Shown piece by piece: positions 36,080 to 53,405 of a stretch of DNA of 64,000 nucleotides. The number at the start of each line of letters is the position of its first letter. The stretch's first letter is position 1. Below the pieces are notes generated by a model that was given only the letters and a program-made list of their open reading frames with translations, was not told where the DNA came from and did not search any database. The stretch is from Acidobacteriota bacterium. GTDB taxonomy: Bacteria; Acidobacteriota; Terriglobia; Terriglobales; Acidobacteriaceae. The stretch is from contig JAKAFB010000001.1 of the NCBI GenBank assembly GCA_021818105.1, forward strand, positions 65,902 through 129,901. The letters run 5' to 3'. A program made the translations under genes and the position numbers.

Positions 36080-37513
36080 CTAAACGGGCTGGTCCACAAT
36101 GGTTTCGTTATGCGGATTCCAATAGAGCCTCTTTCCGGTTCTGTAGGACTCGGCCGCCATAATGCACACAATTGAATGTGAGAATCCATGATCGACTGTT
36201 GCGCCCGGCTCCTTGCGGTCGCGCATGGCATACAACCAGTTCAGCAAGTGCCCGGCGTCATCGTCGCCCGGTCCAAGTGAATCGGGAAGAGGCGCACCGG
36301 GTACTTCTACCGTTGTTTCACTTTCTCGTGCAGGAGGGACGATTGGGACTTTGGTGTAGACCGGTCCGGAATCGTTGGGATCGTATTCTTTTCTTCCGCC
36401 TTCATCAGAGACAGTGAAGAGAGATGCACCTTCTCCTCCATAGTTCATGATCGTTCCATTGCGACCCTGAATTCGCGAGAAGCTGCGGTAGCTATTCCCG
36501 AAGGTGGTCTTGTAGGTGTAGAGGAAGCCCTTGGGATAGGTGATGGCCGCAACGCAGGTGTCGGGATTTTCACGCCCGTCGTCCCATATATAGATGCCCC
36601 CGTTCGCTGTGACGCTTTCCGGATAGGACTCCTCCGTCCACAGATGCACCATGTCGCAACCGTGGCTAAGCCATTGATCGAAGATACCAGACGAAAAGTC
36701 CTTATAAAGGCGGAATTCGAGGTAGACATGTGGATCGAAGGGGCGAAAGGGCTTGCCCAGCAGCCACCGCTTCCAATCCGTATCTTCCTCCTTGAGCAGC
36801 GACTTGCGCCCATAGAGCCAGCTCTTCCATTCCATTGATTCATCCATGAGCATCTGCGGGGAGATGCCGGTATCGGATTCGACAAAGCGCCAACGCTCCT
36901 CGTTCACATTCCATTCCTGCTCGATGTGGACAACTTTGCCTATCCTCCCTGAGCGAATGATCTCGCCGACTTTGAGAATGTACGGTTCGGTGCGGTGCTG
37001 GGTTCCCATCTGCACAACCTGCTTGGATGCCTTGACCACATCGCGCGCTTGTTTGGCCTCACCAAGGACATTGGCAAAGGGCTTTTCCACGTAGCAGTCT
37101 TTGCCGGCTTGCACCACGTCGATACACAATTTGGCGTGCTGGAAATCGCCGGTTGCGATCATGACGCCGTCAATGTCCTTGCGCGCCAGCATATCTTCCA
37201 AGTACTGATAACTCTGCGGTTCGAGGTTAAATGCTTTCTTCACCTGAGCTGCGCGCCGTTCCCGTGCAAGGCTCCAGATATCACAGACCGCAACTGTTTC
37301 CACGGGACATGTTCGGGAGGCCAATTGCACCATGTGTACATGGCCTTCGCTGCGCTGTCCACAGCCTAGCTGTCCAATCCGGATCCGATCATTGGCACCC
37401 AATACGCGCGCGTAAGACCGTGCATCCATGCTTGCCGCCAAAAGTGCGCCGCCGGCCTGTTTTACGAAGGTGCGGCGGTCGAATCCATCTTTTACGCATG
37501 GTTGACTGTTCAT
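36080..37513 (-). CDS. Gfo/Idh/MocA oxidoreductase with Tat-like signal
   Basis: DRRTFVK, IRIGQLGCG, CYVEKP, QMGTQHR. Confidence 0.9.
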   Translation of the reverse strand: MNSQPCVKDGFDRRTFVKQAGGALLAASMDARSYARVLGANDRIRIGQLGCGQRSEGHVHMVQLASRTCPVETVAVCDIWSLARERRAAQVKKAFNLEPQSYQYLEDMLARKDIDGVMIATGDFQHAKLCIDVVQAGKDCYVEKPFANVLGEAKQARDVVKASKQVVQMGTQHRTEPYILKVGEIIRSGRIGKVVHIEQEWNVNEERWRFVESDTGISPQMLMDESMEWKSWLYGRKSLLKEEDTDWKRWLLGKPFRPFDPHVYLEFRLYKDFSSGIFDQWLSHGCDMVHLWTEESYPESVTANGGIYIWDDGRENPDTCVAAITYPKGFLYTYKTTFGNSYRSFSRIQGRNGTIMNYGGEGASLFTVSDEGGRKEYDPNDSGPVYTKVPIVPPARESETTVEVPGAPLPDSLGPGDDDAGHLLNWLYAMRDRKEPGATVDHGFSHSIVCIMAAESYRTGKRLYWNPHNETIVDQPV

Positions 37514-37557
37514 CGATTTCTCCTTGATGCAGGCGCAGAGCGCCAGCCCGCGAGCCT

Positions 37558-38346
37558 TTACCAATCGGCCAACTCCGAGGACGATTCCGTGTCGAGGTAG
37601 ACGGTGGCGTCAGGATGGTTTCTGAGAATTGTTGCTGGGCACGACGACGAGACTGGAGCCTCCAGCATTTGCCGGACGATTGCGGCCTTGCGACGCCCAG
37701 GGACAGAGACGACGAGTTTTGGGACGCGGAGGATGGTGGGAATGGTCAGGGTCAGCGCTTTCCGGGGAACCTCGTCCAGGGTGCTGAACCAACCTTCCTG
37801 GAGTTGCTGTTCACGGCAAACGGCATCAAGCTGGACAACCTTAATATCCTTAGGATCGGCGAAATCTGCTTCCCCCGGATCATTAAAAGCCAGGTGGCCG
37901 TTCTCGCCAACTCCAAGAAGGCAAATGTGAGGATCACTTGCGCGGAGCTGCTCGGAGTAATCGCGGCACGCTTTGTCCAAGTCGGCAGCGGTGCCGTTGA
38001 TCTCATGAAATTCCTTGAGGTGGACGCGGCCAAGAAGATGTTTACGGAGGTAGCTACGGAACGAGGCTCTATGGTCAATGGGAAGAGCTACATATTCGTC
38101 TAGATGAAATCCCACCACGCGGTCCCAAGGCATATTCGGCTGCGAGGTCAACTTCTCAAGCATGAGGAGCTGGGAGACGCCGGTCGCGAAGATGACGCCG
38201 ATGTCATTGGGTTGATGGCTCAGCGCGCGCAGAGACTCGGCCGTCGCGTTTGCCGCGGCGAGTCCAGCGGCCTGAGCGCTTAGATAGATTTCCAGTTTCA
38301 GCCTTCCTACCTGAAGGCACCGAACATTCGTGCTTTGCGATGTCAT
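37558..38346 (-). CDS. nagB: Glucosamine-6-phosphate deaminase family
   Basis: FATGVSQ, FHLDEY, LGVGENGHLAFNDP. Confidence 0.85.
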   Translation of the reverse strand: MTSQSTNVRCLQVGRLKLEIYLSAQAAGLAAANATAESLRALSHQPNDIGVIFATGVSQLLMLEKLTSQPNMPWDRVVGFHLDEYVALPIDHRASFRSYLRKHLLGRVHLKEFHEINGTAADLDKACRDYSEQLRASDPHICLLGVGENGHLAFNDPGEADFADPKDIKVVQLDAVCREQQLQEGWFSTLDEVPRKALTLTIPTILRVPKLVVSVPGRRKAAIVRQMLEAPVSSSCPATILRNHPDATVYLDTESSSELADW

Positions 38347-38556
38347 GATCCCCTTCTTCACACAAGATCAAGAGCGTTTTTGAGCGCAAGCCAATCCTGC
38401 CGCTCTTGAGGGCAGCAATCCGCTTGGGATGCAGCGATAGCACATCACGGACAGAAATTGAACTTGTAAAAGAACCGACTACCGGCCCTTATCCGGTGAA
38501 CTGTCGGGTTGAGCTAAGTGGTCGCGCATGCAGGCAACACACGCTTTGCCATGCGG

Positions 38557-39645
38557 TTAATGATTCATGACATGTATGGGAGCGCGATCTGAGGCCGCTT
38601 CTCGAGAAGCAGGGAGCATGCGGCAAGATTCCCGCTTGATCAATTCGGTTGGGATGGTGACGCTTTGTGGAGCCAGTGTAGGATCTGCAATACGATTTAG
38701 AATCGACTCAGCCATCTGCTTACCGATCTGTTCGGCGAATTCCCGGACCGTAGTCAGCCGGGGATAGAGCCAAGCTCCGATGGTATCGTCACAACCGGAG
38801 ACGCTAATGTCGTCGGGAATTTTCAACCCGCTGTCGCGCGCGCCTTTGTAAACGCCGTGAGCCGCCTCATCGTTTCCCGCAATAATTGCGGTGACGGGCT
38901 CTTTGCGGGCGAGGAGCGATTTGATCCCGAGATATCCGCTTTCCGTGTCGTCTTCAGAGTTGATACTGCTTTGAAGAGGCTCCAATCCAGCTCCGGCCAT
39001 TGCTTGTCGATAACCTTCAAAGCAACGCGCGAACCAAGGCAAGCGAGTGTTTCCGACAAACCAGATGTGACGATGCCCGAGTCCGATCAGATGCTCGGTC
39101 ATATCGCGTATTCCATGAATGTCGTCGGAGAAGACGATGTCGCTCTTCAGGCCGCGAGGCTCACCTACGATGTTGTTCCCGAGCACGACATGGGCGATTC
39201 CCTTGTGATGCAGCAGCTCCAGCAGATTTCCATAGTTGGTGCCAGCCAGGATCACGGCACGGACGACATCCCGATATTGCACGACATTGGGAAGGTGCAA
39301 TTCCTTCCAGGGAATCTGCGGCGAGTAATTGAAGGACAGGAAGACCATATTCCAACCGCGCGCGGCGCAGTAGGCTTCCGCACCGAGCAGAATCTTGGAG
39401 TGGAAAGAGTGCATCATGGTGCGGTTGCTGAGAAGGAAAGCCAGAGCCTTGTTTTTGTTTCTCTGAGAGAGATCAAATCCGAGCTTTGCCGCAGCATCAA
39501 GGACGGTCTTCTGCATGTCGGGATCAACATGACTGTTTCCGTTCAGAACTCGTGATACTGTTGCGACGCTTACCTGAGCAGCGGATGCGATTTCACGAAG
39601 CCCCAGCTTACTCTTTCTGTCTTTTTTGGATTGAACGCGTTCCAT
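38557..39645 (-). CDS. LacI family transcriptional regulator
   Basis: LREIASAAQVSVATVSRVLN, GLKIPDDISVSGCDD, LIKRES. Confidence 0.92.
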   Translation of the reverse strand: MERVQSKKDRKSKLGLREIASAAQVSVATVSRVLNGNSHVDPDMQKTVLDAAAKLGFDLSQRNKNKALAFLLSNRTMMHSFHSKILLGAEAYCAARGWNMVFLSFNYSPQIPWKELHLPNVVQYRDVVRAVILAGTNYGNLLELLHHKGIAHVVLGNNIVGEPRGLKSDIVFSDDIHGIRDMTEHLIGLGHRHIWFVGNTRLPWFARCFEGYRQAMAGAGLEPLQSSINSEDDTESGYLGIKSLLARKEPVTAIIAGNDEAAHGVYKGARDSGLKIPDDISVSGCDDTIGAWLYPRLTTVREFAEQIGKQMAESILNRIADPTLAPQSVTIPTELIKRESCRMLPASREAASDRAPIHVMNH

Positions 39646-39864
39646 ATCGCTAAGCCCCGTTTCTGCCAAGCCGAGAGACGAAAATTCCAAACCAGTATCC
39701 GCCACGGCCGTGCGGCTGCTTTGAGGCAATATCCGAGCCCGCAGTGCATTGCCTTAATCACTATATTAGCAAATTTGCAGAAGAATCAGGAAAAAATATT
39801 AAACATCGTGAAATTTCGCTCTGGCAGGTCGCTTATGACCGAAGATTCGTTCCTCCCGTGCAAG

Positions 39865-41146: not shown

Positions 41147-42415
41147 ATGCCGAGTTGTCTAGAAGAACTGGTTGCAGCCTGGCATTCAGGATGCTCGCGG
41201 GGTATTTACTCGGTCTGCTCGGCCCATCCCTGGGCGCTGGAAGCGGCTATTGAGCAGGCGCTGGAGGACGGAACCCAACTCCTTGTTGAGGCAACATCCA
41301 ACCAAGTGAACCACCGAGGGGGCTATACGGGAATGCAGCCGGCAGATTTTCGCCGGCTGGTGGAAGGAGTTGCGTCGGCGAAGGGTCTAGGTCTGGAGCG
41401 CCTGATCTTGGGCGGTGATCACCTGGGACCAAATCCGTGGCAAACGCTGCCGGCAGCCGAGGCGATGGGCGAGGCCGAACGTATGGTGGATGCCTATGCG
41501 CGCGCGGGATTTACGAAGATCCACCTGGATGCGAGCATGGCATGTGGCGGAGAGCCAGGTCCGTTGAGCGACGAGACAATTGCGGAACGGGCAGCTCGGC
41601 TGTGTGCGGTGGCCGAACAGGCAAGCGGCGAAAGAAAGCCGGTGTATGTGATCGGAACCGAAGTTCCAGTGCCGGGCGGCGCGACGGAGAGCCTGAGCCA
41701 TCTGGAGCCGACGCGACGTGAGGCGGCAGCAAAGACGCTTGAGGTGCACCATCGCATATTTGCCGGGGCTGGTCTTGCAGCGGCGTGGCCCAGAGCAATC
41801 GCACTAGTGGTGCAGCCGGGCGTGGAGTTCAATCACCAAGATGTTGTGGATTACAATGCGGCTCGGGCCCGTCACTTGCCGGAGTTGCTTCGTCGGGAGC
41901 CGGGACGCGTCTACGAGGCGCATTCGACCGATTATCAGAGGCCGTCGGCGCTGAAGGAGTTGGTGCGCGACGGATTCGCGATCCTGAAGGTGGGACCAGC
42001 CCTGACCTTTGCGTTGCGTGAGGCGTTGCGGGCTCTGGAGCAGATCGAGGTGGAACTTGTTGAGCCGAGGCGTCGCTCATGCTTGATGGGCGTGCTGGAA
42101 CAGGCGATGCTCGACAATCCGCAACACTGGAAACATCACTACTCCGGCGACGCGCGTACGATGCGATTGCTGCGCCGCTACAGCTACAGCGATCGAGTCC
42201 GCTACTACTGGGCGGTGCCCGAGGTAAGGGACGCGGTGGCACAGCTTGATGGGAACCTGAAAGAGACGGGTATTCCAGAGACAATGCTGAGCGCATATCT
42301 GCCGCGGCAATACAAGGCCGTGCGCTCGGGAAGACTGCGCCCGGAGGCGCGCGCAATCGCAATCGACCGAATTCGAGACGCAATCCGGCCCTACGCAGAA
42401 GCCTGTTGGGGGTAG
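41147..42415 (+). CDS. kbaZ: GatZ/KbaZ family protein (tagatose-6-phosphate 4-epimerase-like)
   Basis: SVCSAHP, EATSNQVN, GGDHLGP, KIHLDAS, GTEVPVPGG, EAHSTDYQ, YSYSDRVRYYW. Confidence 0.95.
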   Translation: MPSCLEELVAAWHSGCSRGIYSVCSAHPWALEAAIEQALEDGTQLLVEATSNQVNHRGGYTGMQPADFRRLVEGVASAKGLGLERLILGGDHLGPNPWQTLPAAEAMGEAERMVDAYARAGFTKIHLDASMACGGEPGPLSDETIAERAARLCAVAEQASGERKPVYVIGTEVPVPGGATESLSHLEPTRREAAAKTLEVHHRIFAGAGLAAAWPRAIALVVQPGVEFNHQDVVDYNAARARHLPELLRREPGRVYEAHSTDYQRPSALKELVRDGFAILKVGPALTFALREALRALEQIEVELVEPRRRSCLMGVLEQAMLDNPQHWKHHYSGDARTMRLLRRYSYSDRVRYYWAVPEVRDAVAQLDGNLKETGIPETMLSAYLPRQYKAVRSGRLRPEARAIAIDRIRDAIRPYAEACWG

Positions 42416-42576: not shown

Positions 42577-43842
42577 TCAAGCAGCGGGCGGTTTCCACTG
42601 CGGGACGTTCTTCATACTCCCCTCGAACACGGCGTTTTTGCCGGTTGTGCATGCCATAGCCGAGCCAAATCCAACGCGCACGTCCGCCACAGGCTGGGTT
42701 TTGGTGCGTACGCAGTGAACAAATGAGCGGCAGGCGGTGAGGGTTGGGTCTTCCGCCTTGCGGGCATCAATTCGCTTTCCAGGGCCGCGATAGGGCATCT
42801 CATCGTCAGCTGCATAGTTGTAGCTTGCACCGGTTTTAACGCCCCGTCGCACGGCGTCGGTGTGGTCGGAGCCGGTGATGGTGTGGTGGATCGAGCCATA
42901 AAAGGTGGCGTCTTCCACCGTCAACTGTACGCTGCCGTTGGTGCCGTAAACCCAGAGCTGATCGCCCATGAACGCGTTGTCGGTCAGCGATGAAAAAATC
43001 ATGCGGCGCCCTTTGGAATACCCGAGGATGGCTTGAACGTTGTCACCGACGGTTCTGCCATCGTTATAGAGCACGATGCTGGTGGAGCCGAGGACGGTCT
43101 GCGGTTGTTCTCCGAATATCCAGTTGGCAACATCGATCTGATGCGAGCCGAGTTCCTCAAGCAGGCCGCCCGAGCTCTCGCGGTAGAGTCTCCAGTTGAT
43201 CAGATGTTCTAGGTTTGGGTCGGGCACATTGCGTCTCCAGTTGTCTCTGCGGAACCAGTATGCATAGACATGGGTTGGTTCGCCGATCTCCCCTTCGTGA
43301 ATCCGCCGGATGGCTTCCTGAAACCATGGGGCGTAGCGATTTTGATGCCCTACTTGATAGATCTGGCCGCTTTGGGTAACAGCATTGACGATGTTGTAGT
43401 TGTCTTCCTCGGTGAATCCCATGGTTTTTTCGCCATAGACGGGCCGCCCGCTTTGGATAGAGTCGATTACATGCTGCGCGTGGAAGAGTGGCGGCGAGGC
43501 AACCACCACGGCATCAATATCTCGGCGCTCCAGCATCTGGCGATAATCCTTGTACGCAGGGACGGCCTTGCCGACGAGCTCGTTGACCTGCAAAAAGCGA
43601 AGCTCATAGACGTCGGCAACTGCAACTACTTCTACGCCCGGGACGCGCAGGAACTGGCGGATCAACTCTTTGCCGCGGCTGCCAGGTCCGATGACGGCAA
43701 TACGAAGGCGGTCGGCCGAGGTGACTGGCTGATCTCCCACTTCCGGAGCATCTTCCGCTTCTCCGTGGCGCGGGCTGACTCCCATCGTGGCGGAAAGAAT
43801 ACTCAGGGATAGCCCTTGCAGCAAGCTTCTTCGGTTCATCAT
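42577..43842 (-). CDS. Tat-exported Gfo/Idh/MocA oxidoreductase
   Basis: MNRRSLLQ twin-arginine signal, IAVIGPGSRG, VYGEK, ELGSHQID. Confidence 0.9.
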   Translation of the reverse strand: MMNRRSLLQGLSLSILSATMGVSPRHGEAEDAPEVGDQPVTSADRLRIAVIGPGSRGKELIRQFLRVPGVEVVAVADVYELRFLQVNELVGKAVPAYKDYRQMLERRDIDAVVVASPPLFHAQHVIDSIQSGRPVYGEKTMGFTEEDNYNIVNAVTQSGQIYQVGHQNRYAPWFQEAIRRIHEGEIGEPTHVYAYWFRRDNWRRNVPDPNLEHLINWRLYRESSGGLLEELGSHQIDVANWIFGEQPQTVLGSTSIVLYNDGRTVGDNVQAILGYSKGRRMIFSSLTDNAFMGDQLWVYGTNGSVQLTVEDATFYGSIHHTITGSDHTDAVRRGVKTGASYNYAADDEMPYRGPGKRIDARKAEDPTLTACRSFVHCVRTKTQPVADVRVGFGSAMACTTGKNAVFEGSMKNVPQWKPPAA

Positions 43843-43843
43843 T

Positions 43844-44908
43844 TCAGTCTTCCTCCATCATGGTTGAGCATTCACAATCTTCTTTGGCGATTGGCGCAGG
43901 CCAGCGGACAGCTTCTGGTTGTGCGGTCTCTTGTTCTGGGGTGAGCACCAGGGCAGATACCGCCGGCAGGCTATCGAGCAGTGAAGCTCTGGCGTGGGTT
44001 GGCAACGCGAACAGCACGTTGGACAGCGCATCGCTGTCAGTTGCAGAAGGGGCAACGGCGGTAACCTGCAAGACGCTTTCGATAGGCAGTAACGTCTCGG
44101 TACTCATGATGGAGCCATAGAGGTGTCCCCGATCGAGAAATCGCTTCTCGGTGTAGTTGGCCGTGGAAAGAGATGTGTCGCGCAAGAGAACTGTGGAGAG
44201 AATGTGCCCGGGTTTGCCTGGCACCGGGACACGCACCTTCCAGCCTACTTCTCCGGGCGGGGAGCCGATGGCGTAGAGCGTGCTGCTGCCGGCGGAGATT
44301 AGAGAAGCTGGCACCGGCTCGTCCTGCAACACGCGAACGACCCGATCCACCGCATAACCTTTCCCAATTCCGCCAGGGTCAAGCTCGATTCCAGGGACGA
44401 GAAAGCGCACAGTCCTCCTATCCGGATCGAGGCAAACGTTGCGCCAGCCCACCTGGCTTCGGATACTGGATAACTCCTGCGGCGTGGGCACGCGCCCCGT
44501 ATCACCGAAGAATCCCCAGGCTTTCATGAGCTTGCCTACCGTGATGTCGAAGGCGCCCTCAGAGCGGGCACTCCAAGCAAAGGCATAATCCAGGAATTGG
44601 AAGGTCTCCGGATCGGTCGTGACCGGGTGGTCGAAGGCCTCGCGGTTGATGCGCGATAATTCGCTGCCCGGCCGATAATGGCTCAGGAGATTCTCAATGC
44701 GATGGACCTCCTCAAACGCTGCTCCGGCGATCGAGCGGGCTTTGTCCTGAGAGGAGGAATACAAATGAAGTGTGAACTCGGTGCCCATTGCGGGCGTACT
44801 AAACGAGTAGAGCGGAAGCGCGCCGGGCAGCTCTTCCTGGCGGTCCGGGGCAAATGCCGGAACAGGCGGCGTTGGAGGGCGCTCGTGAAACGAAGAAGCG
44901 TAACTCAT
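43844..44908 (-). CDS. apbE: FAD:protein FMN transferase (ApbE family), no signal peptide evident
   Basis: AMGT, SELSRIN, GAFDITVG, DPGGIGKGYAVD, LSTA, ATDSDALS. Confidence 0.9.
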   Translation of the reverse strand: MSYASSFHERPPTPPVPAFAPDRQEELPGALPLYSFSTPAMGTEFTLHLYSSSQDKARSIAGAAFEEVHRIENLLSHYRPGSELSRINREAFDHPVTTDPETFQFLDYAFAWSARSEGAFDITVGKLMKAWGFFGDTGRVPTPQELSSIRSQVGWRNVCLDPDRRTVRFLVPGIELDPGGIGKGYAVDRVVRVLQDEPVPASLISAGSSTLYAIGSPPGEVGWKVRVPVPGKPGHILSTVLLRDTSLSTANYTEKRFLDRGHLYGSIMSTETLLPIESVLQVTAVAPSATDSDALSNVLFALPTHARASLLDSLPAVSALVLTPEQETAQPEAVRWPAPIAKEDCECSTMMEED

Positions 44909-45239
44909 CGAGATATTGTTATTTCCTTTTACTCTCTTCCTTGTATATTTAATTTCGAATATCTTCTTTTGTCAATCTGACCGCTGATTGCCCTATGCAC
45001 ATCCGGACCGGACAGACGAAGTGAGACAGCAACGAGGCGCAACCGCACGATCTTGGGGAAGCTTGCCACGAGGAAATCGGTTCAACCTCCGAGGATTTCA
45101 TGGAACGGCGAACTGATCCTCTCCTAGCAGGACCGTCAGAAGGGGCTTCAGGTCTAAGCAAAGAAAATGCACTTGCATATCACTGATTTTTGTTTTCGGT
45201 ATCATTGACGCTGCATGATCATATCCTTACACTTGTACT

Positions 45240-46034
45240 ATGCGGGTTGAAAGCGACAGTACACCGATGCTCGCCGAGCAGAGGCGGCGTAAGATCTTGG
45301 ATCTGCTGGAGCAGAAAGGGCAGATCACGGTCAGGGAGTTGGCGGACCAATTTTCGATATCGGCAGTTACCTTGCGTGCCGACTTGAAAGCCCTGAGCGC
45401 CGCCGGGGCAATTCTTCGTTCCCATGGCGGAGCGGTGCTTCCCGAGGAGGCGGCGCGCGATTATCCCTTACGCATGAAGGCAACGCTGCACCGGGCGGAG
45501 AAAGTTCAAATCGGGCGGGCGGCGGTCAACCTGATTCAACCGGGCGAAGTGATCCTGCTCGATTCCGGCACCACGACGGAGGAGATTGCGCGCCAGATCA
45601 AAGCTCGGGCAATTCATTCAATTACGTTAATCACCGATGCAATTAACGTTGTTTCGGAAGTGGTTGACGCTCCGGGAATCTCGGTGATTTGCATTGGTGG
45701 AATCCTGCGACCCGTGTCGCAATCCTTTGTCGGTCCACAGGCCGAGATGATGCTGAAGGATCTTCACGCCGACCGTCTCTTTCTTGCCGTAGACGGATTC
45801 GATCTGGAAGTAGGATTGACGACCCCGGATGTGCTTGAAGCTCAGTTAAACAGTTTAATGATGAAGGCATCCAAGGAAGTCACGGTGGTGGCCGATCACA
45901 GTAAACTGGGCCGACGCAGCGTTTCGCGAATCGGAACCATCGAACAAATCCATCGTCTCATCACCGACGCAAAGGCGCCGGAGGACTTCGTCGAAGCCCT
46001 GCGCCACCGCGGCATTGAAGTGATCCTCGCCTGA
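45240..46034 (+). CDS. DeoR/AgaR family transcriptional regulator
   Basis: RRRKILDLL, SAVTLRADL, RSHGGA, LDSGTTT, ADHSKLG. Confidence 0.92.
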   Translation: MRVESDSTPMLAEQRRRKILDLLEQKGQITVRELADQFSISAVTLRADLKALSAAGAILRSHGGAVLPEEAARDYPLRMKATLHRAEKVQIGRAAVNLIQPGEVILLDSGTTTEEIARQIKARAIHSITLITDAINVVSEVVDAPGISVICIGGILRPVSQSFVGPQAEMMLKDLHADRLFLAVDGFDLEVGLTTPDVLEAQLNSLMMKASKEVTVVADHSKLGRRSVSRIGTIEQIHRLITDAKAPEDFVEALRHRGIEVILA

Positions 46035-49359: not shown

Positions 49360-50133
49360 ATGCAAAGGGCACGGGTTCTATTCCTTGCAGTCCTGTTTCT
49401 CGCGGGTGCGGTCTCAGGAGCCGAAGGTGTAAACAGGGGTGGAAAAGGGATGCTGACCTCCGAGTATCTGAGCTCCGACTTCCGTCCGGATGGAGATCTG
49501 ACGAAGCCGATATGGGCTAAGGCAACGCGCGTCCGCTTCGACCGGGATGCGTTTGACGAACCTCTTGTGTACCCCGACCTGGAAACCATGGTGGCCAGCC
49601 GGTGGACGCAGAGGTATCTTTACCTCGCATTCTGGTGCCGTTATGTTCGCCTGGATTTCTTCAAGGGTGAAGAGCCAGCTGTGGAGCGCTGGCAGTTGTG
49701 GGATCGCGATGTGGTTGAGGTATTTCTGAGTCCACATCATGAGCAGAGGAGCCGCTACTACGAGTTTGAGGTTGCTCCGAACAACCAATGGATCGACCTT
49801 GCGGTGGACCTGGGTGCGAAGCCGAAGCCGGTGCATGACATGCAGTGGAACTCCGGCTTCGAGCATGTCGCGAAGATCGACGCGGCACGGCGGGAGTGGA
49901 CGGTGGAGATGCGGATTCCCATGGCGTCGATGGGTACGGCGCATGTGGAGGAAGGCACGGAGTGGCGGGTGAATTTCTATCGCGCGGATGGAGAAAACAA
50001 CCAAAGACGGGACGAGCAGAAGCTTCTGAGCTGGAGGCCGATGCCGCTTGCCAACGGCTCGTTTCATCAGCCGGCCTCGTTCGGCGTGCTTCGGTTTGTG
50101 CAGACGGAAGGGCAGGAACAAAAGGAGAGATGA
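49360..50133 (+). CDS. Secreted CBM9-like sugar-binding protein
   Basis: Signal peptide, DVVEVF, YYEFEVAP, WTVEMRIP, WRVNFYR; start codon uncertain. Confidence 0.75.
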   Translation: MQRARVLFLAVLFLAGAVSGAEGVNRGGKGMLTSEYLSSDFRPDGDLTKPIWAKATRVRFDRDAFDEPLVYPDLETMVASRWTQRYLYLAFWCRYVRLDFFKGEEPAVERWQLWDRDVVEVFLSPHHEQRSRYYEFEVAPNNQWIDLAVDLGAKPKPVHDMQWNSGFEHVAKIDAARREWTVEMRIPMASMGTAHVEEGTEWRVNFYRADGENNQRRDEQKLLSWRPMPLANGSFHQPASFGVLRFVQTEGQEQKER

Positions 50134-53100
50134 GCATGACCGCAGAATTCAGGAAGCTTTGTCTGTTGTTTTGTTTGGCTGTTGTCGTGGCGCTTGCCGC
50201 GCCTGCTATTGCAGCGCCGGTACGCGTCCAGGAATCGGAGATTGTGATTCCTACGTATCTCATGGGGCCGCAGGATCCGAATCCTCCGTTTGCCCTGATG
50301 AATCCGCGGCATGTCTATCCCTATACGATGCTGGACGACCTGACGAATAAGCGTGAGCCGAAGACGTACCGCGCGATTGTATTGGAGAACGAATTTCTGC
50401 GCGCCACGATTCTGCCCGGTCTCGGATCCCGGCTGTATTCGCTGTACGACAAGGTTGATCGCCGTGAGGTTTTCTACTGCAACCACGTCGTCAAATACGC
50501 TCTGATCGGGTTGCGCGGCGCATGGATCTCTGGCGGCATCGAATTCAACTTTCCCAACGGCCATACGACAGATACGGTATCGCCGGTTTCTTCCTGGTAC
50601 GGTAGAAATGCCGACGGCAGCGCGACGGTGTTTCTAGGCGATGTGGACCAGGTCTCCGGAATGTACTGGCAGGTGGCGCTGACGCTGCGACCCGGCGCGG
50701 CCGCGCTCGAGGAGCGCGTTACTCTTTTGAATCCCACGCCGCTCAGCAAGCTTTACTGGTTCTGGGACAACGCGGCGGTATCCGCCCCGGACGACCTGCA
50801 TTACGTCTATCCAATGCGCGAAGTGAATCCGGACGAGCCGGGAGTTGACTGGAGCTATCCATTCTGGCAGGGTACGGACTACAGCCAGTACAAGAACATC
50901 CACCCGCCAACGGAGATCTTCGCAGCCGGCGTGCATCGGAATTTCTACGGTGCGTACTTTACGCAGTCTGACTACGGCATTGTGCATTTTGCGGACTATC
51001 GCGAGATGACTGGAAAGAAGATCTGGACCTGGGGTATATCAGGCAGAGGACTGATTTGGACCGATCTGTTGACCGATCGCGATGGACCCTACAGCGAGAT
51101 CCAGGCAGGACGGTTTGCCACGCAGTTGAACCGGGAGTTTATGATGCCGCAGGATGTCGAGTCGTGGACGGAGTACTGGTATCCGGTGCGGAAGCTGGGC
51201 GAAGGTTTTGTCGAAGCGACGCGGCAGGTTGCTCTCAATCTTCGAGTAGAAGCCGGTCCGCGGCGAGCTGGGACGATGGAGATCTCTGTCAGTCCCGTCG
51301 AAGGGGTTCAGGATGCCCGGATCGTGGTCAGCCTGAAGGGAGAGACGCCTCGTACGATCGGGCCGGTAACTTTGGCGCCGCTGGCGGCGCAGAGCTTTTC
51401 GATTCCCGTTGCGGATGCGCAGGAAGCGAAACAGTCTGCCGAGGTGAAGGTGCTGGACGGAGCAGGGAAAACAATTCTACAGTGGAGCGCAGCCGAGCCC
51501 ATAGATGGAAATCCGGATTTTGTCTCGCAAGTGGGAGCACCTGCGCCACGACAGGTTCCTGCGGATCGATTAACTTCGTCTGGATTGCTTCTGCGTGCTT
51601 TTGAGAAAGAGAAAGAAGGCGATGCACAGGGGGCAAAGCAGCTATTTTCCGAGGTTCTCAAACGCGATCCTGAGTCCATCCCTGCATTGCGCCAGATGGC
51701 GATGGAGCATTATCGCGCGGGGGATTTCGCAGCAGCAGGCGCGGAGATCGGGCGGGCTGTTGCACTGGACGATAGCGACGCAGAGAGCCAGTATCTTGCA
51801 GGGCTTGTGGATCGCGCCCAGGGAAGGCTTTTTGCCGCAAAGGACTCTTTCTGGATTGCGGTGAGGCACGGCAGAATGCAGCCCCAGTCCCTGATGCAGC
51901 TAGGAGAGATTGAGATAGCACAGGGGGATGCAGGCAGCGCGGAGAAATTGCTGCGCGCGGCGATTGAGGAAGACCGCGGCGATGCACGGACGCAAAGCGA
52001 TCTGGCTGTGGCGTTGCGACACGAAGGCAAACTGGAGGAGGCGAGCCGCACAATTGCCAGCGCGTGCGCGGGAATGCCGCTCTATCCACTGGCCCTGGCG
52101 GAGCAGTGGAGGGTCGCATCTGCGAACGCACAAGAAGAACCCGCAGCGGCGCAGCAAGTCGAGCAGCAATGGAGCCGCGCCGCCGGAGACCGGGAGCAGA
52201 GTTATCTTGAAGCGGCAACCTGGTATGAAGAGCTGCACGACTGGCCGGCGGCAGATTTCATTTTGCATGCTGCACTGAGGAAGATGTCTCCGCAAATGGT
52301 TTCGGCGATGCTGTATTACCACCTGGCTTTCAACGCGCAGCAGGAAGAACAGGAACAAGCCGCGCGTGCCTATGCGGTAAAGGCGCGTGCCGCGCGCTAC
52401 GAAGAGATTTTCATCAACCGGCTCGATGATGTCGCGGTGCTGGAAGACGCCCTTCGGGTGGATCCATCGGATGCCCATGCACAATATCTGCTGGGTAACT
52501 TCTACTTTCAATACGGACGCTATGCCGACGCGAACCGCCTGTGGCAGCAGGCCAGGGACTCCGGCTTCGATTATTCGGTTCTCTACCGCAATCTGGCGCT
52601 ATTCACGTGGAAGATCGAGATGAACAATGCGCAGGCAGCCGATCTGTACCGGCAGGCAATCCGTCTCGCGCCGCACGATTTTCATCTGTATCGCGACCTG
52701 GACGAGATTCAAACCGCGATGGGCGCCACCGAGGCGCGCAGCGCAATGTTTGCTTCAGCTCCGAACGACGTGCTGGAGCACGATCCGGTGCGAGTGCGTT
52801 ATATTTTGTTGCTGCTACAGAAGGGCGATCCCGATCAGGCGCTGGGCTTGATGCAGGGACACGACTTCAGGCCGTGGGAAGGCGGACAGAACATGCACGA
52901 CTTATTCGCGTATGCCTGTATCGAGGCAGGCCGCAAGCGGTTGGCAGAGGGCAAACACGCAGCGGCAGAGTCAAGCATTAAGCGTTCGTTTACGTATCCA
53001 GAGAACCTGGGAGTTGGCAAGCCGGACGATGCGGACGATGCGGCAGGGCTTTATTGGCTGGGCACTGCGCGAAAGCAGATTGGAGACGGCGCAGGGGCGG

Positions 53101-53405
53101 ACAGCACGTGGAAGAAGGCATTGGAGCAGCGCGGCGGAGGGAAGATCGCAGCATACTACCAGTCGCTGGCTCTGGAGCAACTTGGGGAGAAGGCGCAGGC
53201 CGGTGCCCGGCTGACACAATTGGCGGAAGCGCCACACCAGCCCGGTTCCAAGGATGAAGACTCGGCGGAGAGCTACTATGCGGCGGGAATGGCCGAGCAG
53301 CACAGGGGACAGTCGCAGCAGGCTGCGGCGGATCTCCAGAAGGCGCTGTCGCTGGATCCCTCCTTCTGGCAGGCCCAACTGGAATTGGCGAAGTTGCGGC
53401 CCTGA
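50130..53405 (+). CDS. DUF5107 domain + TPR repeat secreted protein
   Basis: Signal peptide, LENEFLRATILPGLGSRLYS, RGAWISGGIEFN, KKIWTWG, EIQAG; long C-terminal TPR array. Confidence 0.85.
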   Translation: MSMTAEFRKLCLLFCLAVVVALAAPAIAAPVRVQESEIVIPTYLMGPQDPNPPFALMNPRHVYPYTMLDDLTNKREPKTYRAIVLENEFLRATILPGLGSRLYSLYDKVDRREVFYCNHVVKYALIGLRGAWISGGIEFNFPNGHTTDTVSPVSSWYGRNADGSATVFLGDVDQVSGMYWQVALTLRPGAAALEERVTLLNPTPLSKLYWFWDNAAVSAPDDLHYVYPMREVNPDEPGVDWSYPFWQGTDYSQYKNIHPPTEIFAAGVHRNFYGAYFTQSDYGIVHFADYREMTGKKIWTWGISGRGLIWTDLLTDRDGPYSEIQAGRFATQLNREFMMPQDVESWTEYWYPVRKLGEGFVEATRQVALNLRVEAGPRRAGTMEISVSPVEGVQDARIVVSLKGETPRTIGPVTLAPLAAQSFSIPVADAQEAKQSAEVKVLDGAGKTILQWSAAEPIDGNPDFVSQVGAPAPRQVPADRLTSSGLLLRAFEKEKEGDAQGAKQLFSEVLKRDPESIPALRQMAMEHYRAGDFAAAGAEIGRAVALDDSDAESQYLAGLVDRAQGRLFAAKDSFWIAVRHGRMQPQSLMQLGEIEIAQGDAGSAEKLLRAAIEEDRGDARTQSDLAVALRHEGKLEEASRTIASACAGMPLYPLALAEQWRVASANAQEEPAAAQQVEQQWSRAAGDREQSYLEAATWYEELHDWPAADFILHAALRKMSPQMVSAMLYYHLAFNAQQEEQEQAARAYAVKARAARYEEIFINRLDDVAVLEDALRVDPSDAHAQYLLGNFYFQYGRYADANRLWQQARDSGFDYSVLYRNLALFTWKIEMNNAQAADLYRQAIRLAPHDFHLYRDLDEIQTAMGATEARSAMFASAPNDVLEHDPVRVRYILLLLQKGDPDQALGLMQGHDFRPWEGGQNMHDLFAYACIEAGRKRLAEGKHAAAESSIKRSFTYPENLGVGKPDDADDAAGLYWLGTARKQIGDGAGADSTWKKALEQRGGGKIAAYYQSLALEQLGEKAQAGARLTQLAEAPHQPGSKDEDSAESYYAAGMAEQHRGQSQQAAADLQKALSLDPSFWQAQLELAKLRP

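Follow-up and report, generated by a model that had tools for sequence, protein, structure and literature searches.

We analyzed a 64,000-nucleotide stretch of contig JAKAFB010000001.1 (hereafter, the window) from an Acidobacteriaceae genome assembly, GCA_021818105.1, in which an apbE gene lies directly upstream of a gene for a Gfo/Idh/MocA family oxidoreductase (Table 1). A sequence-only reading of this gene pair had proposed that the ApbE protein attaches flavin mononucleotide (FMN) to a [ST]GA[ST] motif of the oxidoreductase in the cytoplasm, before the latter is exported via Tat, the twin-arginine translocation route, and that this would allow nicotinamide adenine dinucleotide (NAD) to be recycled in the periplasm. 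Here, we examined both genes, their relatives in the Acidobacteriota, and the explanations that compete with flavinylation of the dehydrogenase.

An apbE gene joined to a gene for a Tat-leader dehydrogenase

The earlier claim that apbE ends 1 nt before the oxidoreductase start was borne out by the sequence of the junction, in which the apbE stop codon TGA (43846-43844) is followed by a single A and then by the ATG of the dehydrogenase gene at 43842. A putative ribosome-binding site, GGAGGA (43856-43851), lies within the 3′ end of apbE, and this arrangement suggests that the two genes are translationally coupled. The most common junction in relatives was a 4-base ATGA overlap.

The ApbE protein matched Pfam PF02424 over residues 41 to 320 (2.2e-62; 211.4 bits, with a cutoff of 25.6), and its best solved relatives were TM1553, FmnB, and Ftp. 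Its score against NCBIfam NF007774, the E. coli-type equivalog, was 77.8 bits, below the cutoff of 498. Consistent with the sequence-only reading, it carries neither a signal peptide nor a lipobox: the N terminus is proline-rich and hydrophilic, and the 39 residues ahead of the core reached a maximum 12-residue hydropathy of 0.73, versus 1.9 to 3.2 in the clearly signal-bearing relatives. A signal peptide hidden upstream of apbE was ruled out, the open frame there extending for just 21 codons, which are hydrophilic.

The dehydrogenase matched Pfam PF01408 (60 bits), PF22725 (74 bits), and PF02894 (58 bits), and G52, G54, and G57 of its GxGxxG motif, E138-K139, and H234 were invariant. An AlphaFold2 model showed the standard Gfo fold, with a mean pLDDT (predicted local distance difference test) of 78.5, and Foldseek matched it at a probability of 1.0 to inositol and 1,5-anhydrofructose dehydrogenases, DgpA, and GFOR (entries 3ezy, 7x1x, 2glx, 9m3d, and 1rye). 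It is not a BT2158-type equivalog, since its NCBIfam score is far under the cutoff (NF058561, 62 versus 750), and its score against TIGR04380 was likewise below the equivalog cutoff (107 versus 355). The twin-arginine leader seen earlier was confirmed, with the Tat motif N-R-R-S-L-L at residues 3 to 8 and an N-terminal RR in 195 of 197 orthologues. The genome also encodes TatC (8.6e-71), and the leader together with this machinery marks the dehydrogenase as a predicted Tat substrate.

TABLE 1 Features of the apbE-dehydrogenase locus and of related loci (positions are those of the window unless a locus is named)
Feature	Position	Strand	Description
apbE	43844-44908	minus	354-aa member of the ApbE family, lacking both signal peptide and lipobox
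Gfo/Idh/MocA oxidoreductase gene	42577-43842	minus	421 aa, Tat leader, candidate flavinylation client
Gene junction	43843-43856	minus	Putative ribosome-binding site, apbE stop, and single spacer base before the ATG
Twin-arginine leader	43759-43842	minus	MMNRRSLLQGLSLSILSATMGV (translation); protein begins MMNRRSLLQG
Acceptor motif T337-G338-A339-S340	42823-42834	minus	[ST]GA[ST] within VKTGASY; Ser340 is the proposed FMN acceptor
P-Y-R-G-P-G	42778-42795	minus	Residues 350-355; another conserved island, 10 residues past Ser340
Altered ApbE catalytic motif YGSIMST	44099-44119	minus	Residues 264-270; Ser266 at the position of the general-base His
Ala250 of ApbE	44159-44161	minus	In S-L-S-T-A-N, where FmnB has the triad Ser257 (T-S-G)
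Divergent intergenic region	44909-45239		AT-rich; between apbE and the AgaR-like repressor gene; putative promoter region
AgaR-like DeoR repressor gene	45240-46034	plus	Divergent from apbE; NCBIfam AgaR, Pfam DeoRC
GatZ/KbaZ-like gene	41147-42415		Neighbor
LacI gene	38557-39729		Neighbor
Glucosamine-6-phosphate isomerase/6-phosphogluconolactonase-like gene	37558-38361	minus	Neighbor
Second Gfo/Idh/MocA paralogue	36080-37564	minus	Twin-arginine leader; 494-aa open reading frame; hidden Markov model E = 2e-41
DoxX/DoxD inserts, examples	L126 785-1285; L131 2479-2988		Also in L121 (unpublished genome G202), on which none of the claims rests

Conservation of the proposed acceptor motif and of the gene linkage

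Translation confirmed the TGAS motif within VKTGASY (42834-42823), and its conservation was computed over 197 nonidentical dehydrogenase orthologues. The acceptor position, residue 340, was Ser in 189 of them and Thr in the other 8, with nothing else found, and the residue that follows was Tyr or Phe in 100%. Thr337, Gly338, and Ala339 were conserved at 95%, 98%, and 96%, respectively, while the flanks (residues 316 to 332 and 341 to 347) vary freely. The motif falls in a segment with pLDDT values below 50 (residues 319 to 350), which the model thus depicts as a probable flexible insert, and ApbE has been reported to modify motifs in loops or at termini (PMC12052999). A position restricted to Ser and Thr within a variable loop matches what is predicted for a hydroxyl acceptor. 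The second island, P-Y-R-G-x-G, was conserved at 100% for P, Y, and both G residues and at 98% for R, and we infer that it might help to hold the flavin.

The genome encodes 12 Gfo paralogues, 6 of them with an RR leader, and [ST]GA[ST] occurs only in the one that is linked to ApbE. The specificity of the motif to apbE-linked homologues, on which the sequence-only reading depended, was thus upheld by the Ser/Thr acceptor in 197 of 197 orthologues and by the lack of the motif in all 11 unlinked paralogues. About 0.04 such motifs would be expected by chance in a protein of this size, as estimated from typical residue frequencies, and the one in the dehydrogenase appears to be more than a chance occurrence.

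The assembly, which is 98% complete, gave a single genomic hit for ApbE. A search of the whole genome found no FMN_bind, DUF2271, or NqrB/RnfD protein, which extends to the genome the earlier remark that no FMN-binding-domain protein is visible at the locus. DUF3570 was also not found in the genome, a weak negative given that the control found nothing in 14 control genomes. The dehydrogenase itself has only Gfo/Idh/MocA domains and none of these known client folds, and if it is modified, it would represent a new class of ApbE client.

Judging by the names carried by its close database homologues, the organism belongs to the Acidobacteriaceae. In a sample of 151 Acidobacteriaceae genomes, some ApbE was present in 36 and an orthologue of the dehydrogenase (E ≤ 1e-60; 45 to 77% identity) in 12, and in all 12 the gene immediately upstream, on the same strand, was the best ApbE match. 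When the flanks were compared all against all, only apbE and the dehydrogenase gene recurred in all 12 loci, and no conserved neighbor that could serve as an electron acceptor was common to them beyond the pair. TonB-type outer membrane receptors, xylose-isomerase-like TIM barrels, other Gfo enzymes, and LacI regulators were recurrent but not universal; these neighbors would fit periplasmic sugar or glycoside oxidation, and TIM barrels, TonB-type receptors, and LacI are also features of 3-keto-glycoside pathways. One genome of the same genus, G062, has neither gene.

A wider scan with one genome per species yielded 80 further loci, all from Acidobacteriaceae and including cultured Granulicella, Tunturiibacter, and Bryocella strains. 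ApbE was the adjacent gene in 73 of them, lying immediately upstream in 71 and immediately downstream in 2. The remaining 7, which include one locus at the end of a contig, had no ApbE within 4 kb; all 5 of these 7 genomes that were checked encode an ApbE elsewhere, 4 of them at 6 to 75 kb on the same contig. In a sample of 301 Acidobacteriota genomes, ApbE was found within the 1.5-kb flanks of 25 of the 27 best-match loci beyond those of G000, G024, and G121. Taken together, apbE and the gene for the Tat-leader Gfo/Idh/MocA enzyme form a conserved module in Acidobacteriaceae. Many of these phylum-wide loci hold a DoxX/DoxD gene in the middle. In other families, Pfam identified a gene for a DoxX/DoxD protein of about 165 residues between the two genes (Table 1), and the dehydrogenase loop of these trios has a different conserved stretch that ends in A-S and is followed by E-S-R.

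Some loci departed from this pattern. Two of them hold decaying copies of the module: in G072 (L007, 6329-7316), apbE is frameshifted beside an altered dehydrogenase C terminus, and in G106 (L014, 4930-5959), apbE is broken into three parts and contains a stop codon, and the search for an orthologue of the dehydrogenase gave none. Two loci (L017, 4849-7316, and L018, 4811-7306) hold a distant pair in reversed order, gfo and then apbE, in which the Gfo enzyme has a twin-arginine leader, 30 to 36% identity, and A-G-A-T-V in the homologous loop, and the ApbE (39% identity) is signal-less yet bears the His.

The surroundings of the pair in the window concern sugar use. The AT-rich region upstream of apbE is likely the promoter region of the apbE-gfo operon, and the divergent repressor beyond it scored 258 bits against NCBIfam AgaR, with a cutoff of 260, and also matched Pfam DeoRC. 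With the second Gfo paralogue, the isomerase-like gene, GatZ/KbaZ, the AgaR-like repressor, and LacI, the region looks like an island for amino-sugar or tagatose utilization; an amidohydrolase and an MFS transporter are also encoded in the window. The second paralogue has no [ST]GA[ST] motif and overlaps the start of the isomerase-like gene. Downstream of the region, an open reading frame of 1,186 aa occupies 49845-53405 on the plus strand, and the neighborhoods of relatives often encode proteins of about 1,200 aa in which a CarboxypepD_reg domain is joined to an outer membrane beta-barrel.

Loss of the signal peptide and of the catalytic histidine in ApbE

We compared the catalytic motif by HMMER alignment to 1vrm and 7esa, together with 18 ApbEs of the family and 120 database homologues; the FmnB numbering is from the alignment to 7esa, in which Asp, Ser, and His all fall into place with a chain offset of 20. 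Where the ApbE of the window has YGSIMST, the canonical enzymes have Y-x-H-I-[ILM]-D-P. The Asp-Ser-His triad (D301-S257-H273 in FmnB and D285-S241-H257 in Vibrio cholerae ApbE) is not intact: the Asp is retained (A-T-D-S-D-A-L-S), the Ser is replaced by Ala250, and the His is replaced by Ser266. The protein belongs to the PF02424 family by its sequence, but its catalytic competence cannot be assumed. D177, K183, D293, and S296, which correspond to the FAD (flavin adenine dinucleotide) and Mg2+ ligands Asp184, Lys190, Asp301, and Ser304 of FmnB, were 98 to 100% conserved in both His-bearing and His-less clades. In previous studies, His273 of FmnB and His257 of V. cholerae ApbE were proposed as the general base, H273A abrogated the activity of FmnB while S257A merely reduced it, H257G lowered the activity of the V. 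cholerae enzyme, and His273 was found to contact the sugar and phosphates of FAD (PMC12052999, PMC8906456).

A FastTree phylogeny rooted on distant ApbEs brought all linked ApbEs together (support, 0.99), with Cys-His and a signal peptide on the basal branches of their clade. The ApbE of the window falls within a single derived clade (support, 0.97) that comprises 91 of the 150 sampled sequences and lacks both the His and the signal peptide. Across the 120 database homologues and the 80 loci, the correlation was nearly perfect, Cys-His occurring with a hydrophobic signal peptide and Gly-Ser or Gly-Ala without one. However, a small Cys-Ser group retains the signal peptide (Y-C-S-I-M in L027, L028, and L030 and in P0127, P0129, P0141, and P0153). 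It falls in the sister of the window's clade, indicating that the His was lost at least twice on the tree, and one of these losses occurred without relocation. The nodes that separate the two losses have moderate support (0.77 to 0.82).

The only systematic differences between the His-less and the His-bearing ApbEs were R135G, C265G, and H266S/A. We failed to find a compensating base in the His-less clade, in which no His, Lys, Asp, or Glu has become newly conserved. The residue before the motif in the dehydrogenase, which is K/E/Q in partners of His-less ApbEs versus T/V in partners of His-bearing ones, was too inconsistent to be called a compensation. The ratio of ApbE to dehydrogenase divergence was 1.18 in the His-less clade and 1.08 in the His-bearing clade. 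The notion that the His-less ApbE is a pseudogene was rejected, since the gene is intact in approximately 90 lineages and the divergence ratio is merely slightly raised. The His-less ApbE is under continued purifying selection, and it is the sole ApbE in genomes G000, G122, and G024.

As the basal relatives retain the Sec signal peptide and the His, the periplasm appears to be the ancestral compartment of tagging, and the signal-less ApbE the derived state of one clade. The sequence-only reading had not noted the missing His, and the link between the loss of the signal peptide and the loss of the His, together with its phylogeny, emerged, as far as we know, from this analysis.

Candidate flavinylation of the dehydrogenase and its alternatives

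On balance, we consider it somewhat probable that ApbE has a new client in the dehydrogenase, which would receive FMN and, in the lineage of the window, would receive it in the cytoplasm before Tat export. The strict synteny, the restriction of the motif to ApbE-linked enzymes, and the absence of another client support the coupling of ApbE to the dehydrogenase and the motif as the likely site, and the gene pair points to an undescribed class of flavin-tagged enzymes. From this pattern, we infer that FMN is covalently bound, which residue carries it, where the tagging takes place, and which path the electrons follow. With respect to the compartment, the sequence-only reading has to be corrected in part: the coupling and the motif stand, but the lack of a signal on ApbE does not characterize the module, because the basal and most other lineages carry a Sec-type signal peptide, and cytoplasmic tagging before Tat export would be one clade's derived solution.

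In the mechanism that we propose, apbE and the Tat-leader Gfo gene would make up a dedicated two-gene module of maturation factor and enzyme. The dehydrogenase would fold around NAD(P), with a flexible insert of about 35 residues bearing the G-x-x-T-G-A-[S/T]-[Y/F] site, and ApbE would transfer FMN from FAD to Ser340 as a phosphoester. The tethered flavin could then serve as an electron outlet for the bound nicotinamide outside the cytoplasm, where there is no free NAD pool, and the DoxX/DoxD proteins in the operons of other families may point to a link with quinone. In most Acidobacteriaceae, ApbE would be exported by Sec and the tagging would take place in the periplasm, whereas in the lineage of the window the loss of the signal peptide would have moved it to the cytoplasm, where FAD is plentiful. 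Tagging there would be feasible because the client leaves folded through Tat, and cytoplasmic ApbEs are known in Klebsiella and trypanosomatids (PMC12052999). The His-less ApbE could catalyze the transfer via its retained Mg/FAD site, or it could be slow and act on a single cotranslated client. The NAD recycling in the periplasm that was proposed earlier would be a reasonable function, and the apbE-doxX-gfo trios elsewhere in the Acidobacteriota lend it indirect support.

Several findings weigh against this proposal. In ApbE, Ser266 takes the place of the His that matches FmnB His273 and V. cholerae His257, and Ala250 that of the triad Ser. The site is imperfect as well: the Asp that usually stands at −3 (D-x-x-[ST]GA[ST]), already noted as missing by the sequence-only reading, is Gly in 96% of the orthologues, and Gly338 is replaced by Thr or Ser in some linked, more distant orthologues (TTAS and TSAS). 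The missing Asp is a weak objection, because a D-to-A change upstream of the motif had minor effects only in a Klebsiella fumarate reductase study cited in a review (PMC12052999). In addition, the operon in the window encodes no electron acceptor, and the single DoxX of the genome is unlinked, lying beside genes for DUF1810 and glutathione peroxidase. For continued FMN transfer by the His-less ApbE speak the acceptor position that is strictly Ser/Thr in the partners of this clade, the lack of a second ApbE, the strong selection, and the fact that one signal-bearing lineage has also lost the His.

The main alternative, which we regard as unlikely but serious, is that the His-less, signal-less ApbE no longer transfers FMN and has become a noncatalytic partner of the dehydrogenase. 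Such a protein might be a redox subunit that holds FAD, or a maturation chaperone with the TGAS loop as its docking site, and could hitchhike through Tat with the dehydrogenase. In favor of this alternative, the losses of the general-base His, the neighboring Cys, Arg135, and the Sec signal coincide in one monophyletic clade of 91 sequences with full retention of the remaining FAD and Mg ligands, the genes are tightly coupled (1 nt apart in the window and overlapping by 4 bases in relatives), selection is still strong, and H273A is known to abrogate FmnB activity. However, the acceptor position has remained strictly Ser/Thr and undergoes S-to-T exchanges within the clade, TGAT variants occurring among the partners of its ApbEs, and this would suit a reactive hydroxyl better than a docking surface. 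Moreover, the sister lineage without the His still has a signal peptide (Cys-Ser with signal peptide), so that loss of the His does not depend on a new compartment or a new role, and a stable complex of ApbE and the dehydrogenase is without supporting evidence. The narrower version, in which the ApbE clade (91 of 150) ceased transfer, kept its FAD, and turned into a cytoplasmic partner bound to what was once the acceptor loop, seems to us improbable. If FAD-retaining ApbE is exported with the dehydrogenase as a flavoprotein subunit, an enzyme-client pair may have given rise to a two-cofactor (NAD/FAD) periplasmic enzyme.

It is also clearly unlikely, in our estimate, that the dehydrogenase is unmodified, with TGAS kept for substrate or cofactor binding or for folding and with ApbE present for another reason, such as flavin trafficking, FAD pyrophosphatase activity, or an unrecognized client elsewhere. 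Some ApbE/Ftp proteins, for example, Treponema pallidum Ftp, do hydrolyze FAD, and the motif without its usual Asp and with a variable Gly, together with an ApbE that lacks the His, would be explained in this way. Against this stand the linkage across approximately 100 genomes with nothing else nearby conserved, the lack of a known client family in the genome, the confinement of the motif to the ApbE-linked paralogue, and its position in a loop whose other residues vary freely. Finally, we consider it very improbable that Ser340 receives some other nucleotide-derived group from the ApbE-like enzyme of this clade, with a dinucleotide distinct from FAD as the donor, for instance. The sole group-specific changes, R135G, C265G, and H266S/A, do lie around the contact with the nucleotide sugar, and His273 of FmnB touches the sugar and phosphates of FAD, but all other positions of the FAD pocket are equally conserved in both clades, the dehydrogenase retains a normal Rossmann GxGxxG for noncovalent NAD, and there is no positive evidence for another donor.

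Flavinylation of the dehydrogenase, which we prefer, would place the protein beside the known ApbE clients DUF2271 and DUF3570, NqrC/RnfG (FMN_bind), NqrB/RnfD, NosR, and PplA, with which it shares a link to apbE, a predicted place of work outside the cytoplasm, and a conserved [ST]GA[ST]. Unlike these, it is a complete NAD-dependent Rossmann dehydrogenase rather than a small electron-transfer domain or a membrane subunit, and its site lies in a flexible insert without the upstream Asp. A survey of the neighborhoods of orphan apbE genes yielded the DUF2271 and DUF3570 clients and left 4% of genomes as orphans (Meheust et al. 2021, PMC8238504). The genome of the window, which has no FMN_bind client, resembles those cases, and the same logic of inference is used here (PMC8238504). 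The survey discarded ApbEs without a signal peptide, which put the ApbE clade of the window outside its scope (PMC8238504). Neither it nor a follow-up in 2024 mentions ApbE with Gfo/Idh/MocA as a client pair; one Gfo/Idh/MocA gene, a neighbor in a Caldicoprobacter locus, is listed in the survey's supplements (PMC8238504). Our literature searches linking ApbE with Gfo/Idh/MocA or sugar dehydrogenases found no paper.

Similar to Klebsiella pneumoniae ApbE and the ApbE domain of trypanosomatid fumarate reductase, the ApbE of the window is signal-less and appears dedicated to a neighboring or fused client (PMC12052999). Those clients remain in the cell and have an FMN_bind-type site, whereas the one here would be exported afterwards by Tat; the ApbE of the window also lacks the catalytic His. 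The dehydrogenase, on the other hand, resembles Zymomonas mobilis GFOR and the BT2158-type glycoside 3-dehydrogenases, which are Tat-exported Gfo/Idh/MocA enzymes carrying their own nicotinamide cofactor, as seen in its fold match to 1rye and its weak match to NCBIfam BT_2158_fam. These enzymes recycle NAD(P) through a second half-reaction on sugar, and neither a covalent flavin nor an ApbE partner has been reported for them. The nearest arrangement is that of the apbE-doxX-gfo trios (L126 and L131), in which ApbE likewise stands upstream of a twin-arginine Gfo enzyme of the same broad clade (31 to 41% identity), but which carry DoxX/DoxD between the genes and a different loop sequence, while DoxX is absent from the Acidobacteriaceae module.

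Soil and gut bacteria very commonly have exported Gfo/Idh/MocA dehydrogenases, which work where there is no free NAD pool. Apart from self-balancing reactions like that of GFOR, there is to our knowledge largely no explanation of how these enzymes dispose of their electrons. If the dehydrogenase is flavinylated, its cofactors would be arranged in a new way, with a covalently tethered FMN beside a bound nicotinamide, and the new class of ApbE client would explain part of the orphan apbE genomes left by the 2021 survey. The module also amounts to an evolutionary experiment, since, depending on the genus, the same pair occurs with a periplasmic, His-bearing ApbE or with a cytoplasmic, His-less one, and it bears on two questions, namely, whether FMN transfer requires the His and whether flavinylation of a Tat client can precede its export. 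The module is present in cultured strains, including Granulicella mallensis, Tunturiibacter spp., and Bryocella elongata, which makes experiments on it practical.

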